Counted from the first letter of the stretch, positions 9,890 to 58,299 are shown. The stretch: 64,000 nucleotides of DNA from Clostridia bacterium (GCA_045590935.1 JAZNSA010000018.1:1512-65511); one strand, 5' to 3'. Translations and numbers: made by a program. The notes: generated from the sequence alone by a model not told the origin.

Positions 9890-10597
9890 ATGCGTATTGA
9901 TAAATATCTTTCTTCTTCGGGAAAAGGCTCAAGAAAAGAGATAAAGCAGTTTCTAAAAGACGGAAAGGTCGCAGTTAATGATAAAATTATTAAAAATGCG
10001 GATTTCCAAGTAGATGAAAATAACGATAAAGTCCTTTTTTTCGGCGAAGAAATTATATATAAAAAGTTTATATATCTTATGCTAAACAAGCCGGCGGGCT
10101 ATATAAGTGCAACGGAGGACAAAATGCTTCCCGTTGTTTCATCGCTTGTCCCGAGCGAGCTTGCTCATTTTGAGGTCTTTTGTGCGGGAAGACTTGATAT
10201 TGATACAACAGGGCTTTTGCTTTTAACAAACGATGGGGCTTTTGCACATCACTTAATGTCGCCAAAGCATCACATCGAAAAAAAATATTATGCTCTCATA
10301 GATACGCCTGTAACGGAAATTGACATAGAAAAAATGAAAAACGGAATAACATTGGATGATGGTTATAAATGTATGGAAGCAAAGCTTGAAATTATATCAA
10401 CCAAAAATAACCAAAGCGAAATATACCTGACTATATGCGAGGGTAAATTTCATCAGGTCAAGCGTATGTTTGAGGCTGTTGGCAAAAAGGTTTTAAGCCT
10501 GAAAAGAGTATCAATAGGCGGTGTTTTGCTCGACGCCTCGTTAGAGGAGGGCGAAATGCGCGAGCTTACCGAAGAGGAGCTTTCGCTTCTTATGTAA
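9890..10597 (+). CDS. rsuA: 16S rRNA pseudouridine synthase, RsuA family
   Basis: S4 domain (MRIDKYLSSSGKGSRKEIKQFLKDGKVAVN) and catalytic GRLDIDTTGLLLLTNDG. The track ORF begins at 9728 in the AT-rich leader; ATG 9890 has GAGAGG upstream. Confidence 0.85.
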   Translation: MRIDKYLSSSGKGSRKEIKQFLKDGKVAVNDKIIKNADFQVDENNDKVLFFGEEIIYKKFIYLMLNKPAGYISATEDKMLPVVSSLVPSELAHFEVFCAGRLDIDTTGLLLLTNDGAFAHHLMSPKHHIEKKYYALIDTPVTEIDIEKMKNGITLDDGYKCMEAKLEIISTKNNQSEIYLTICEGKFHQVKRMFEAVGKKVLSLKRVSIGGVLLDASLEEGEMRELTEEELSLLM

Positions 10598-10685
10598 ACG
10601 ATGATTAAATCGCAATTAAAAAAGCCTCCTCATCCGTCAAACCTTATGGTTTTTCACCTTCCCCTCAAGGGAAAGGCTTGAGGCA
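10596..10685 (+). repeat. R-family mosaic repeat, partial copy R1
   Basis: It begins at the rsuA stop with gtaaacgatgattaaat, the same 15-mer as the inverted right end of R2. It then carries cctcatccgtcaaaccttatggttt and the palindrome ccttcccctcaagggaaagg, both shared with R3/R4. Confidence 0.7.
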
Positions 10686-10811
10686 TAATAATTTTATGTT
10701 ATTTCATCATAAAACCATAATTATTTTCATACGTGCCTAACATTTGAATTTGCTTTTTGTTCATCGGTAAACCTTTATTGAACCACACGACTATTGCGTG
10801 ATTTTCGTTAT

Positions 10812-10854
10812 ACAAAAAAGGGCGTAGCAAATGATTTTTCATTTTGCTGCACCC
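10812..10854 (-). terminator. intrinsic terminator of dpaA-dpaB
   Basis: On the minus strand, gggtgcagcaaa / tttgctacgccc form a stem followed by TTTTTTG, 30 nt after the dpaB stop. Confidence 0.6.
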
Positions 10855-16441: not shown

Positions 16442-18427
16442 GTGATTACTTTGAGGGAAATCACAATTGTTAAAAGTGCAGGCTTTTGTTTTGGAGTTAA
16501 GCGAGCGGTTGATGAGGTATATAATTTGCTTGAAAAAAACGAAAAGATTGCAATTTTAGGCGAATTGATACACAATCGTCAGGTCAATGAGGATATATAT
16601 AATCACGGGGCGGTAATGATTGACAATGTTTCAAATTGCGGCGATGGTCGCAGTATAGTTATAAGGGCTCATGGCGTCGGCAGGTCTGTTATAGACGAGT
16701 GTGAAAGCCGAGGGCTTAAGGTTTACGATTTAACTTGTCCATACGTCAAGAAGATACATCAAATCGTTCAAGCCGAATCTGAAAACGGAAGATTTGTTAT
16801 TATAGTCGGGGACAAGGCTCATCCCGAGGTAATAGGCATATCAGGCTGGTGCGATAATAATTTTCAAATTATCAACTCAGTAGATGAGGCATTAGAAATT
16901 ACCGACGAGAATTTATGTATCGTTTCTCAAACGACAGGCAGCAGAGAGAATTTTGAAAAGATATGCTCTTTGCTCAAAAGCAAATTTCCAAACACACTTG
17001 TTTATGACACAATTTGTAAATCAACAAAAATTCGTCAAAACGAAGCAGAGGAAATTTCAAAGCAGTGTGATGCAATGTTTGTTATAGGCGGAAAGAAAAG
17101 CTCAAACACTATAAAGCTGTATAACATTTGTTTGAAAAATTGCAAAGACACATTTCATATCGAAAATTTTGAGGAAATTCCTCAGAATATAAATTTAAAA
17201 AACAAAAAAATAGGTATTACCGCCGGTGCATCAACGCCGTCAGGTATTATCGAGGAGGTAGCGAAAGCGATGGAAGAAATTAAAAACGGAGCAGAATTAA
17301 GCTTTGAGGAGGCAATGGAGCAGACTCTAAAAACTTTAAATACAGGAGATGTGGTAGAAGGTACCGTTGTTGACGTTAGACCTACTGAGGTTATCGTTGA
17401 CCTTGGTTTTAAGTCAGATGGAATTATTTCTGCGTCTGAATTAACAGACGACCCTGATTTAAAGCCTTCGGACATTGTTAAGGTTGGCGATGTCATTTCC
17501 GTATTTGTTGTAGGAGTAAACGACGGAGAGGGCAAAACAGTTCTTTCTAAGAAAAAGCTTGACTATATTGCAGGTCAGAAGAAGATTGAAGATGCTCTTG
17601 AAAATCAGGAAATATTAGAAGGAAAGGTAATCAGCGTTGTAAACGGCGGTATCATTGTTTTAATTGAGGGAACAAGAGTATTCGTTCCTGCAAGAAAGGT
17701 TTCCGACAGATACACAGAGGATTTGTCTGTATTCCTCAATCAGAACGTTCAGTTGAAGATAACTGAAATAAACTCAAGACGTAAAAGAGTTCTTGGTTCT
17801 ATCCGTGATGTGCTTGTTGAGCAGAAGAAAGCTCTTGCAGAAAAATTCTGGGCAGACTGCGAGGTTGGCAAAAAGTACACAGGTGTTGTTAAGTCAGTTA
17901 TGCCATTTGGTGTATTTGTTGATATCGGCGATGTTAAAGGTCTTTTGCATATCAGCGAGCTTAGCTGGAAGAGAATTAAGCATCCGTCAGAAGTTGTAAA
18001 CTCAGGTGATTCAATCGAAGTTTACGTTAAGGATATCGCAGAGGATACAAAGAAAATTTCTCTTGGCTTTAAAAAAGCTGAGGACAACCCTTGGGTTATC
18101 GCTCAGAGTAAATTCAACGTTGAGGACGTTGTAAAATGTAAGGTTGTTCGTTTTATGCCTTTCGGTGCATTTGTTGAGTTAATCCCCGGAGTTGACGGTT
18201 TAATTCATATTTCTCAGATTTCAAACAAGAGAATTAAAGAGCCTGCTGATGAGCTTACAATCGGTCAAGAAGTAGAAGCTAAAATTACAGAGCTTAACTG
18301 GGAAACAAAGAGAATCAGCCTAAGCATAAGAGCATTGATTGCTCCTGTAGCTGAGGATGCTATCGAAGAAGCTCCTGTAGCTGAAGATGCTATCGAAGAG
18401 ACTCCTGTAGCTGGAGATGCTGAATAA
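16442..18427 (+). CDS. ispH: bifunctional 4-hydroxy-3-methylbut-2-enyl diphosphate reductase / ribosomal protein S1 fusion
   Basis: An N-terminal IspH/LytB domain (about 280 aa; GFCFGVKRAV, VSQTT) is fused to four S1 repeats (GxVxxVxxFGxFV pattern). This fusion is known from clostridia. The exact start is uncertain (GTG 16442 or TTG 16451). Confidence 0.9.
   Translation: MITLREITIVKSAGFCFGVKRAVDEVYNLLEKNEKIAILGELIHNRQVNEDIYNHGAVMIDNVSNCGDGRSIVIRAHGVGRSVIDECESRGLKVYDLTCPYVKKIHQIVQAESENGRFVIIVGDKAHPEVIGISGWCDNNFQIINSVDEALEITDENLCIVSQTTGSRENFEKICSLLKSKFPNTLVYDTICKSTKIRQNEAEEISKQCDAMFVIGGKKSSNTIKLYNICLKNCKDTFHIENFEEIPQNINLKNKKIGITAGASTPSGIIEEVAKAMEEIKNGAELSFEEAMEQTLKTLNTGDVVEGTVVDVRPTEVIVDLGFKSDGIISASELTDDPDLKPSDIVKVGDVISVFVVGVNDGEGKTVLSKKKLDYIAGQKKIEDALENQEILEGKVISVVNGGIIVLIEGTRVFVPARKVSDRYTEDLSVFLNQNVQLKITEINSRRKRVLGSIRDVLVEQKKALAEKFWADCEVGKKYTGVVKSVMPFGVFVDIGDVKGLLHISELSWKRIKHPSEVVNSGDSIEVYVKDIAEDTKKISLGFKKAEDNPWVIAQSKFNVEDVVKCKVVRFMPFGAFVELIPGVDGLIHISQISNKRIKEPADELTIGQEVEAKITELNWETKRISLSIRALIAPVAEDAIEEAPVAEDAIEETPVAGDAE
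18341..18427 (+). repeat. 30-nt tandem repeat (2.9 units) encoding APVAEDAIEE at the C-terminus of IspH-S1
   Basis: gctcctgtagctgaRgatgctatcgaagaR occurs twice, followed by a truncated third unit that ends at the stop codon. Confidence 0.85.
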
Positions 18428-41342: not shown

Positions 41343-41691
41343 TGGTGGAGGCGAGGAGAGTCGAACTCCTGTCCGAAAACATATCCGCATAGGCGTCTCC
41401 GGGTGCAGTTTGTGGTCAAAATTCCCTTCGTTATAAGTCCGCAAACAAACTTATAACGTCAGTAGCTTCATTAGTCATGTTCGGCGCAAAGCTTAACCGA
41501 ATCACGTTCACTGCAAAATGACGCCCTGTCCCGAGCTGCAGTCTTCTCAGGCAGAACGGCCGCCGTTAATTAGGCAGCGTAAGCTAAATCTTTATTAGCG
41601 TTTATATTTAAAAAATTGAGCTTTTAAAGTGGCGCCCAACCACTACCCGCTTCCCACGGTTCAACGTCCCCGTCGAAACCGGTACGCCCCC
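41343..41691 (-). ncRNA. ssrA: transfer-messenger RNA (tmRNA, SsrA), 349 nt
   Basis: The 5' end GGGGGCGTACCGGTTTCGACGGGG pairs with the 3' end CGCCTCCACCA (G3:U pair). The T-arm is GGAGTTCGACTCTCC. The internal reading frame GCT AAT AAA GAT TTA GCT TAC GCT GCC TAA gives predicted tag ANKDLAYAA. It lies immediately downstream of smpB. Confidence 0.9.
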
Positions 41692-41831: not shown

Positions 41832-42299
41832 TTATTTATTCCTTTCCCTCAGCGCCCTCTCTATATCACGCTTCGCATCTCTTCTTGCTGCATCCTCTCT
41901 CTTATCGTAAAGCTTTTTACCTTTGCATACCGCAAGCTCAACCTTAACCTTGGAATTTTTAAGATACATACTCAAAGGCACAAGCGAATACCCCATCTGC
42001 GCCGTTATGCCAATCAATTTTCTTATTTCATTTTTATGCAAAAGAAGCTTCCTTACTCTAAGCGGGTCTTTATTAAAAATATTCCCCTTTTCATAGGGAC
42101 TTATATGCATCCCATGCACAAATATTTCTTCCGTTTTGCTGACACTTGCATAAGAATCCTTTAAATTAACGCTTCCCTGACGAACAGATTTAACCTCTGT
42201 TCCAAAAAGCTCTATTCCCGCCTCATAAACGTCCTCAATAAAATAATCATGTCGTGCTTTTTTGTTTTGAGCAATTATTTTTTTAGCATCGTTTGCCAT
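41832..42299 (-). CDS. smpB: SsrA-binding protein SmpB
   Basis: [11 protein letters not shown] and GTEVKSVR; 155 aa with a basic C-terminal tail. Confidence 0.95.
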
Positions 42300-57086: not shown

Positions 57087-57141
57087 TTTGATAAGCTTGA
57101 ATAAAAATTTTAAATTTTTTTTGCATTTTTCAAAAAAACAC

Positions 57142-57170
57142 TTGACAAATAATAAATATATGTGTATAAT
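57142..57170 (+). promoter_or_regulatory. perfect consensus sigma-A promoter of the micro-ORF operon
   Basis: TTGACA (57142-57147), a 17-nt spacer, then TATAAT (57165-57170). Confidence 0.55.
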
Positions 57171-57213
57171 GTATGTGTATAGACGTTATAATATAGTTTT
57201 TGTGGAGGTGAAA

Positions 57214-57324
57214 ATGATGAAAAAGTATGAATGTCCCGATTTGGAAGTTGTTACATTTGAAGAAGAAATTATGTCAGACCTTGTTTTTAGTATTATAGGT
57301 AACGAAGATGGTGGCGAGTATTAA
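57214..57324 (+). CDS. acidic micro-protein A (36 aa), paralogue of B; candidate precursor peptide or small regulator
   Basis: MMKKYECPDLEVVTFEEEIMSDLVFSIIGNEDGGEY, with SD GGAGGTG 5 nt upstream. It is hidden inside the spurious 83-aa track ORF 57073-57324. Confidence 0.55.
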   Translation: MMKKYECPDLEVVTFEEEIMSDLVFSIIGNEDGGEY

Positions 57325-57369
57325 TTTCTTAATTTTTTTCTGTAATCATTTTTAGGAGGATAGATAGTT

Positions 57370-57477
57370 ATGAAGACATACGAGAGTCCGGTTGTAGATA
57401 TAATTTCTTTTGAAGAAGAAATTATGTCAAACGTTGTTACAAGCATCCCCGGCATAGAAGATGGTGGAGATTTCTGA
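57370..57477 (+). CDS. acidic micro-protein B (35 aa), paralogue of A
   Basis: MKTYESPVVDIISFEEEIMSNVVTSIPGIEDGGDF, with SD AGGAGG 9 nt upstream. 20/35 residues are identical to A, and a 21-nt block is identical at the DNA level. Confidence 0.55.
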   Translation: MKTYESPVVDIISFEEEIMSNVVTSIPGIEDGGDF

Positions 57478-57553
57478 TAAATCTTTGCTTTCTTGTGTTG
57501 ATGTTGGCGTAACTTGTAGTTGTGTTTTTTACAATTTGGTTAATACGTAAAAA

Positions 57554-57592
57554 GTGGATGTTCTTTGAAAGAGCATTAACATCCGCTTTTTT
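57554..57592 (+). terminator. intrinsic terminator of the micro-ORF operon
   Basis: gtggatgtt / aacatccgc form a stem (one G-U pair) followed by TTTTTT. Confidence 0.6.
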
Positions 57593-57635
57593 GTTGTATA
57601 AAAATATAGTTTTGTTTTGTATCTAAAAAATATAT

Positions 57636-57712
57636 GTGCCCGTAGCTCAGCTGGATAGAGTAACAGACTCCGACTCTGTAGGTCGTGCGTTCGAATCGCA
57701 TCGGGCATACCA
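57636..57712 (+). tRNA. tRNA-Arg (anticodon CCG), CCA encoded
   Basis: Manual cloverleaf: acceptor GTGCCCG/CGGGCAT, D-arm GCTC-AGCTGGATA-GAGT, anticodon arm ACAGA-CTCCGAC-TCTGT, T-arm GTGCG-TTCGAAT-CGCAT, discriminator A plus CCA; 77 nt. Confidence 0.9.
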
Positions 57713-57717
57713 GAAAA

Positions 57718-57747
57718 AAGCACCTTGCTTATGCAAGATGCTTTTTT
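57718..57747 (+). terminator. intrinsic terminator after tRNA-Arg
   Basis: aagcaccttgc-ttat-gcaagatgctt (1 mismatch) followed by TTTTT. Confidence 0.65.
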
Positions 57748-57751
57748 GGGC

Positions 57752-57850
57752 TAAATCCGTCTGCGGCGAAATAAATCCATCTATGGTGGATGAAATCTGC
57801 TAACGCTGACGAAATCGCCTGCGGCGGATAAAAGACGGATTTAATTTCAT
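57752..57850 (+). repeat. D-family structured repeat, copy D2 (downstream of tRNA-Arg terminator)
   Basis: TAAATCCGTCT ... AGACGGATTT inverted termini. It is homologous to the reverse complement of 41203-41298. Extra GATTTC words continue to about 57905. Confidence 0.75.
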
Positions 57851-57932
57851 CAAAACGAAAGCTTGGATTTCACCGTGAGAGTATCGAACGATTTCATTGA
57901 AATTAAGTGTCATCTGAACAGTTCGCATCTTT

Positions 57933-57974: not shown

Positions 57975-58299
57975 TTTTTCTATTTCTTTTTCGCTCTTCA
58001 CTAACAAATCCTGTCGATTATATCAATGAGTTTTTTACTTTACTATTATTGCAAGATATATCAACTATGCTAAACGGATTAAACAGCAAATGAAAGGACC
58101 ATAGCTCAACTCCATACTCATCAGCGTATTTTCTCAAACTCTTATAATCCATATCAAGGCACCTATCATAAGACACCGACACTTCAATTGCATCTATTCC
58201 CACCTTCGCGCAATCTTTAAATAGCTTCGGACTTACCTCAGGTCCAACCTTGTCATAAAAAAGCTTCCCGCCCGCTAGAGACAATCCGTTTTTATGCAT
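57951..58299 (-). pseudogene. truncated sugar phosphate isomerase/epimerase (xylose isomerase-like TIM barrel) remnant
   Basis: The 93-aa ORF (..AKVGIDAIEVSV..YADEYGVELWSFHL..) stops early. A shifted frame adds ..DLLVKSEKEIEKVKIDKAF* and then the terminator. Family members normally have 250 aa or more. Confidence 0.5.

Follow-up and report, generated by a model that had tools for sequence, protein, structure and literature searches.

A 64,000-nucleotide stretch of DNA from a Clostridia bacterium (GCA_045590935.1 JAZNSA010000018.1:1512-65511), which we call the window and whose positions are counted from its first letter, carries between ispF and a gene for tRNA-Arg(CCG) two very short tandem open reading frames (ORFs), A and B, behind a perfect consensus promoter. 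Our analysis leaves little doubt that their products belong to a real, conserved and undescribed family of micro-proteins, encoded in a module in which promoter, peptide genes, hairpin and tRNA-Arg(CCG) follow one another. The unit lies downstream of ispD (PF01128) and ispF (PF02542) and is made up of the following features:

57100..57141 (+): AT-rich tract resembling an UP element, 5' of the -35 box, recognized by reading the sequence
57142..57170 (+): sigma-70-type promoter TTGACA-17-TATAAT, with the -35 box at 57142-57147 and the -10 box at 57165-57170, a 12/12 match
57205..57211 (+): Shine-Dalgarno sequence GGAGGTG of ORF A, 5 nt from the ATG at 57217 and 2 nt from the ATG at 57214
57217..57324 (+): peptide A, MKKYECPDLEVVTFEEEIMSDLVFSIIGNEDGGEY, 35 amino acids (aa), or 36 aa with a start at 57214
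57354..57359 (+): Shine-Dalgarno sequence AGGAGG of ORF B
57370..57477 (+): peptide B, MKTYESPVVDIISFEEEIMSNVVTSIPGIEDGGDF, 35 aa
57549..57592 (+): terminator-like hairpin, with an A-run, the stem GTGGATGTT/AACATCCGC and T6, conserved
57593..57635 (+): short AT-rich spacer ending in ATAT, without a convincing promoter
57636..57712 (+): tRNA-Arg(CCG) with encoded CCA (ARAGORN; Rfam RF00005, 62 bits)
57714..57747 (+): second terminator hairpin, at the end of the whole unit (inner stem 57724-57737; arms 57714-57728/57733-57747, 93% complementary)

An earlier note on this DNA, made from the sequence alone, had already described the perfect promoter, the two ORFs led by Shine-Dalgarno sequences, the hairpin with its T-run and the position between ispF and tRNA-Arg, and sequence reading and scans bear it out on all of these. 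The promoter is the single 12/12 site across the 1.8 kb scanned, where 9/12 sites are as frequent as in shuffled sequence; the sole promoter-like site near the spacer that precedes the tRNA (57576-57605) is a 9/12 match, at background frequency. Four related loci have a comparable A/T-rich tract 5' of their promoter (alignment A5).

A family of short acidic peptides

Peptides A and B are identical at 20/35 residues, as the earlier note had counted. Both are acidic (pI ~4.05 in each case, with masses of 4030 Da for A and 3849 Da for B) and contain neither Arg nor His, in agreement with their earlier description as strongly negative. The terminal aromatic residue that had also been remarked upon is present in A and B but does not hold as a rule for the family described below, whose members may also end in L, V, I or T or carry short extensions. 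For A we favour the second ATG, at 57217 (MKKYE…), as the probable start, because the family alignment and the Shine-Dalgarno spacing favour it, which would make both peptides 35 aa long; a gene caller at NCBI starts A at an upstream ATG, for a product of 54 aa (P0001), and B matched as P0002. The AlphaFold2 model of B, built from a 23-sequence alignment, is an extended chain without secondary structure (predicted local distance difference test, pLDDT, 68.6; predicted template modelling score, pTM, 0.18), and the peptide is probably disordered on its own.

A profile built from A and B retrieved 20 proteins at E<1e-3 from 1.84 billion representative proteins, nearly all of them 32-49 aa long and with the same ends, and two more profile searches, in a set of 5.8 billion proteins, gave 33 matches at E<=0.01 and 39 matches at E<=1. 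In total, about 30 related peptides of 32-43 aa share the consensus MKKYExPxVEVVxFEEEIM, followed by a variable middle of 5-17 residues and by SGIEDGG[DE]Φ, and the reading frame is preserved throughout the family despite these length changes of 5-17 residues. The hosts are sporulating gut Clostridia. Among ten family ORFs taken from DNA, the proportion of synonymous differences (pS) was 0.5-0.94, that is, synonymous sites are saturated, against a proportion of nonsynonymous differences (pN) of 0.21-0.39, and differences at codon positions 1/2/3 numbered 504/420/854. Because pN is low relative to the saturated pS and third positions are in excess, these figures argue for purifying selection on the coding sequence. 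A strong Shine-Dalgarno sequence stands before every family copy. Judged by these patterns, A and B are paralogous coding genes under purifying selection, which is one of two explanations that the earlier note had offered for their identical DNA blocks of 21 and 11 nt. The blocks themselves were found again at the codon level. The second explanation, gene conversion between A and B, is not needed: the same codon is used at 12/20 of the residues they have in common, where 9.9 are expected from the codon usage of the window, and pS between them is 0.75. Taken alone, the 21-nt block has P ~0.008, but it was chosen after the fact.

This is, then, a small-protein family that annotation has overlooked or mis-called, and one without a Pfam, NCBIfam or PHROGs model. 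None of the three databases gave a match for A and B (nor did PHROGs for two relatives), Pfam and NCBIfam returned nothing credible for 30 members scanned singly, and a profile search of PDB sequences found no match for the family. Rfam recognized only the tRNA at the locus, which led us to set aside an RNA element in place of the ORFs. A phage or plasmid origin was likewise rejected, since tblastn of the family-consensus peptide against phage and plasmid collections gave no match and viral contigs scanned with a degenerate pattern gave none either. A degenerate DNA pattern had 10 matches in JGI metagenomes, two of which are a divergent variant (FEDGGDL…) and the others chance, and a pattern scan of genome contigs returned just one distant relative, the patterns being too specific to A and B. 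A literature search on the N-terminal hexapeptides found no paper; one article on a small mRNA that mentions tRNA-Arg (PMC5711450) proved irrelevant, the tRNA being merely a blot control.

Linkage to tRNA-Arg(CCG)

The family is encoded in five lineages, which differ in the number of peptide genes and in the upstream neighbour:

The window: two peptide genes; upstream neighbour ispF
L002 (GCA_045636325.1): one peptide gene; upstream a 165-aa gene without family, then MazG, with DnaJ on the far side
L010/L013 and sister L042-L046: two peptide genes; upstream a trpR-like repressor
L027/L028: two peptide genes; upstream a trpR-like repressor
L023: three peptide genes; upstream a Cu_amine_oxidN1 protein

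In all five, tRNA-Arg(CCG) lies directly 3' of the peptide genes, at 15/15 loci with enough downstream sequence, a count scored by the 5' tRNA motif and including five metagenome contigs (L003, L011, L012, L023 and L043) that end 23-27 nt inside the tRNA. The order of the module is also kept, from TTGACAA-17-(TGTG)TATAAT through one to three tandem peptide genes with their Shine-Dalgarno sequences to the hairpin, the spacer, the tRNA with its CCA and a second terminator. In L002, L010, L027 and L023 there is little or no variation in TTGACAA and the -10 box. The hairpin (GCGGAT…ATCCGC and T-run) is orthologous in the five lineages; its consensus has 15 pairs, three of which show compensatory changes, and in L002 and L027 it is picked up by a terminator scan. 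Its T-run is separated from the tRNA by 18-45 nt of AT-rich spacer, which ends in ATAT and measures 18-19 nt in L002 and L027; no promoter-like site was detected between T-run and tRNA in either of these two loci. A hairpin equivalent to the second terminator follows the tRNA in L002, L010, L013 and L027.

Outside the module, the flanks vary among lineages. Even close relatives differ 3' of the tRNA, where L010 has an rve transposase (10316-10834) and L013 (1451-3714) and L042 have FeoAB, and this side looks like a hot spot for rearrangement or insertion. In L027, 12/12 TTGACA-17-TATAAT promoters are found at 1402-1430 and 1631-1659, one for each of the tandem peptide genes; the promoter therefore appears to belong to the peptides, and promoter and peptide would have been duplicated together as a block. 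The earlier note had described the two ORFs as a stand-alone operon, which misses the invariant linkage to tRNA-Arg(CCG), with hairpin and then tRNA in every related locus. Given that this linkage is invariant, that no promoter is detected between the two parts and that the outer flanks vary, we regard a peptide-tRNA operon as probable. Whatever the function of the peptides, the order peptide, hairpin, tRNA would be a new example of transcript sharing between mRNA and tRNA in Bacillota, and the module could serve as a simple system for the study of terminator read-through and of mRNA 3' ends defined by RNase P.

A tiny protein and a tRNA on one transcript have a parallel in the tyrT operon of Escherichia coli, where tpr (b1229) encodes a small protamine-like protein within the tyrT transcript (PMC3141248) and a single strong promoter serves both. 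There, however, the ORF lies 3' of the tRNAs and its peptide is basic, whereas the peptides of the present family are acidic and encoded 5' of the tRNA, with a hairpin between the two, and co-transcription is inferred.

The YxxP motif and known peptide systems

The N-terminus Y-E-x-P-x-[LV] of A and B had been likened in the earlier note to the leader motif read by recognition elements (RREs) in pathways for peptides that are made on the ribosome and modified after translation (RiPPs), and this likeness was borne out. Discrete RREs of lasso pathways bind the motif [Y/W]xxPx[L/V/I/F/A], which is also used by a second family of RiPPs in Bacillota, the linear polyphosphorylated peptides (LPPs), where Tyr-16 and Pro-13 of the precursor LppA are required for RRE binding (PMC13381572, 2026). 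The N-terminus of our family conforms to this motif: of 23 members, all have Y4, at least 90% have P7 and most have V/L/I at +5, Y and P being the most conserved residues of the family. We reconstructed two leaders from the primer table of PMC13381572, that of LppA (MEENTKREQKLYARPMVLSQQPVRFET, followed by AQSW…) and that of PbaA (MKKEWLKPELEVLDVNQTM). In an hhalign comparison, the family profile aligned with the PbaA leader over 14 columns at P=0.004, with Y paired to W, P to P, and LEVΦ aligned.

PbaA, a paeninodin-like lasso precursor of Bacillota, has a leader of 19 residues that starts with MKK, contains [W/Y]xxPxLEVΦ and ends in Met; the conserved N-terminal block of the family agrees with it in all four respects. 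If cleavage occurred after this M19, the spacing Y-16/P-13/Φ-11 would equal that of LppA. The penultimate residue of the block is Ile, in contrast to the Thr of lasso leaders, although lasso leaders with Ile at this position have been reported (PMC10368454). In the family, a conserved I18-M19 precedes S/A/T/G/L; for this to agree with the Ile variant, cleavage would have to occur after M19.

The remainder of the peptide departs from lasso precursors. Cores of lasso peptides begin with a small residue and carry an Asp or Glu at position 7-9 that forms the macrolactam, according to a ring-size rule. Counted from the residue after M19, the conserved Glu of (G)IED in our family falls at position 11 in A and B; the shortest members, such as one with AGTIISGIE, are the only ones to have it at position 9, while longer members have it at positions 12-19. 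With no acidic residue fixed at position 7-9, we ruled out a lasso core. Moreover, lasso cores lack the conserved C-terminal GIEDGG motif, and no B1/B2/C genes, which in lasso systems supply an RRE plus peptidase (B) and an asparagine synthetase (AS)-like cyclase (C), are adjacent to the family peptides.

LPP systems, which also occur in Bacillota, resemble the family in their number of small precursor genes at each locus (one to three) and in a conserved N-terminus with YxxPxV. However, the LppA leader consensus is YxxPxVLxHQxIxFETxxS, of which the family shares just YxxPxV, its F-E pair being three residues nearer the Tyr and HQ being absent. Likewise, LPP precursors have conserved N-termini and variable C-termini (PMC13381572), hypervariable by comparison with the conserved C-terminus of the family, and no SpI-like peptidase, RRE, HprK-like kinase, nucleoside triphosphate (NTP)-transferase or MsbA-like exporter of the kind found in LPP clusters was seen near the family. 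A third point of comparison is FzmZ of fosfazinomycin, a scaffold peptide that bears YxxP and on whose C-terminus the chemistry takes place (PMC13622209, preprint). Such scaffolds, those of peptide aminoacyl-tRNA ligases (PEARLs) included, are, like our peptides, very short ribosomal products with an N-terminal YxxP and a functionally important C-terminal end, but FzmZ adjoins an AS-like enzyme and ends in a fixed VR pair, whereas the last residue of the family varies and no enzyme is linked to it. The double-glycine leader of peptidase-containing ATP-binding cassette transporters (PCATs) was also considered and rejected, since 1-7 residues follow the GG, some members have no GG (GIEDAEV, GIEEDEV) and no ABC transporter is nearby. 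On these alignments, the resemblance to leaders that dock on RREs is real and specific, but membership fails for both lasso peptides and LPPs.

The N-terminus of the family, in the form MKK[YF]ExPxΦEΦΦxF, is also found in distant relatives with other C-termini, which lie 17-30 bp 3' of large secreted proteins and have no tRNA nearby. The large partners are without a Pfam family or have LamG domains:

L001, L004-L009: peptides ending in …FDTEDVILTSIVDTEVDGDF; giant repeat proteins rich in Cys, accompanied by a lipoprotein and by a second, convergent peptide
L014 (882-6196): peptide ending in …GIEDGGEDPV; a 1478-aa repeat protein, then a 199-aa protein
L018, L039 (3712-5710), L047: peptides MKKFEMPEVQVVTFEE…F; LamG/FIVAR proteins

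This combination of a constant N-terminal module with exchangeable C-terminal parts favours what would be a logic of leader plus cargo, and the distant relatives, being without a tRNA, show a role for the peptide that would be independent of it. As separate observations, the L004-L009 loci, in which the second peptide copy is convergent, adjoin a tyrosine recombinase, and in L049 (2419-7317) a divergent 48-aa variant (…DQFEDGGDLGEGKDVLDV), also present in L035 and L038 and with marginal homology to the family (E ~7e-3), lies 5' of three consecutive lipoprotein genes without a Pfam family.

Possible roles of the peptides

Because the N-terminus fits the RRE-docking motif and the C-terminal half could be the part acted upon, we consider the peptides to be, with a probability of roughly 0.35, precursors or scaffolds that are processed in trans and dock on a domain of the RRE type whose gene lies elsewhere in the genome. 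The consensus sigma-A promoter, one to three micro-peptide genes, the hairpin, tRNA-Arg(CCG) and the final terminator would then form one transcription module, whose products would be abundantly expressed, intrinsically disordered acidic peptides of ~4 kDa. Their N-terminal half (MKKYExPxΦEΦΦxFxxEIM) would be the docking sequence, of the [Y/W]xxPxΦ type bound by RREs, an idea which the extended chain predicted by AlphaFold2 fits, as expected for a docking peptide. The C-terminal half, ending in SGIEDGG[DE]Φ, would be modified in trans by an enzyme that contains an RRE. The tRNA, with no promoter of its own, would be derived from the shared transcript through partial read-through of the hairpin and cleavage by RNase P, and after this cleavage a protective hairpin would remain at the 3' end of the peptide mRNA. 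Among the Arg codons of the window CGG is the least frequent (11/499), so that low read-through would suffice to supply the tRNA. Docking on an RRE, processing in trans and co-transcription are the steps that we infer. If the N-terminus is indeed a leader of the RRE type, precursors or scaffolds would be split from their maturases throughout the family and wired into a tRNA operon, and RiPP mining based on gene neighbourhoods could not detect such precursors.

Several points weigh against a precursor or scaffold role. Foremost is the lack of partners: within the window, 57 kb upstream and 6 kb downstream, there is no RRE, peptidase, kinase, cyclase, radical SAM enzyme or exporter, and the same enzyme classes were not found in L002 (±10 kb), in L042 (~10 kb upstream and 5 kb downstream) or in the shorter flanks of L010, L013, L027 and L023, these related loci being judged from the precomputed Pfam annotation of neighbours. 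For the window this agrees with the earlier note, which had seen no maturase, protease or exporter: of the 61 candidate ORFs run against Pfam, all are housekeeping genes or lack a family, and none contains a CxxxCxxC motif. Separation from the maturase across a whole family is unusual for RiPPs, and the missing biosynthetic neighbours in five lineages weigh against a classical RiPP cluster. In addition, where a core would be hypervariable, the peptides vary in the middle and keep their C-terminal end, and a perfect housekeeping promoter and a tRNA operon are atypical for secondary metabolism. The match to PbaA is short and its P value of 0.004 comes from one pairwise test, the hhalign comparison with the LppA leader was not significant (P=0.27), and co-transcription with the tRNA rests on the non-detection of a promoter. 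In a moderate version, the peptides would be a new class of RRE-dependent precursors with unlinked maturases and the housekeeping-style expression of a tRNA operon.

It is possible, and nearly as likely as docking on an RRE, that the peptides act unmodified, as disordered ligands, regulators or mimics. Such acidic mini-proteins would bind a partner with a housekeeping function by way of the N-terminal strand motif and of an acidic tail with a C-terminal hydrophobic residue, and would be expressed constitutively together with a component of translation. The absence of a biosynthetic neighbour in any lineage is readily explained in this way, as are the consensus sigma-A promoter and its housekeeping context, the conservation of both ends, as in a peptide that binds at two sites, and the disorder of the predicted structure. 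On the other hand, no binding partner was identified, the agreement of the two most conserved residues with the RRE-binding YxxP would have to be a coincidence, and the distant relatives, which retain the N-terminus and swap the C-terminal part, look more like leader plus cargo. If this explanation is correct, the family would be a highly expressed acidic regulator.

A third explanation would place the function in cis. Translation of the micro-ORFs, through attenuation or ribosome arrest, would set the read-through of the hairpin and hence the level of tRNA-Arg(CCG), and the peptides would have no function in trans. The fixed order of micro-ORFs, terminator-like hairpin and tRNA, with no promoter in between, and the rarity of CGG in the window speak for such leader ORFs. 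However, no CGG codon occurs in the ten family ORFs, whose few Arg codons are AGA or CGT, and we therefore reject attenuation of the tRNA through CGG codons. Between stop codon and hairpin lie anywhere from ~14 to 70 nt, a single fold of the spacer in the window gave no obvious alternative antiterminator pairing, and neither amino-acid conservation over the whole length nor tandem paralogs would be expected of attenuator leaders; relatives with the same N-terminus also occur without any tRNA. Taken together, this makes a role in cis improbable.

Still less probable is that the linked tRNA takes part in the chemistry. PEARL enzymes extend peptides in a manner dependent on aminoacyl-tRNA. By analogy, the peptides could be acceptors or scaffolds for a transferase dependent on Arg-tRNA, either PEARL-like or ATE/Bpt-like, with the co-substrate tRNA transcribed together with them. 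The invariance of the linkage to tRNA-Arg(CCG) in five lineages, the N-terminus resembling that of YxxP scaffolds and the conserved acidic C-terminus would all suit a peptide-plus-tRNA biosynthetic operon, for which there would be no described precedent. Nevertheless, no such enzyme is nearby, the C-terminal residue is variable, and the tRNA appears to be an ordinary CGG decoder, given its score of 62 bits to RF00005 and its encoded CCA.

Finally, that A and B are chance ORFs in an AT-rich spacer, as the earlier note would have concluded had relatives not kept the frame, or an RNA element misread as coding, can be regarded as effectively refuted on sequence grounds: the ORFs are very short and match no database model, but the profile search yielded homologues in at least five lineages that keep the frame across indels, substitutions are of the coding type, every copy has its strong Shine-Dalgarno sequence, and Rfam finds no RNA family besides the tRNA. 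The rest of the probability we leave to mechanisms outside those discussed here.

Some other features of the window deserve mention. Just 3' of the tRNA terminator, at 57740-57900, there is a dense array of GAAATC/GATTTC-type motifs (~8 copies in both orientations), flanked by the inverted repeat TAAATCCGTCT / AGACGGATTTA; Rfam gives sub-threshold 'Gut-1' matches there on both strands (~21 bits; the gathering score is 50). In L027, short hairpins separated by TTATATT form an analogous array 3' of the tRNA. Between the repeat array of the window and a DUF1836 gene, a 93-aa ORF without a Pfam match (58021-58299) may be a gene remnant. Further upstream, a tmRNA gene (tag ANKDLAYAA) stands beside smpB (41343-41691 and 41835-42299), which is ordinary housekeeping content, and one 661-aa ORF at 16442-18424 contains four S1 RNA-binding domains together with an IspH/LytB domain.

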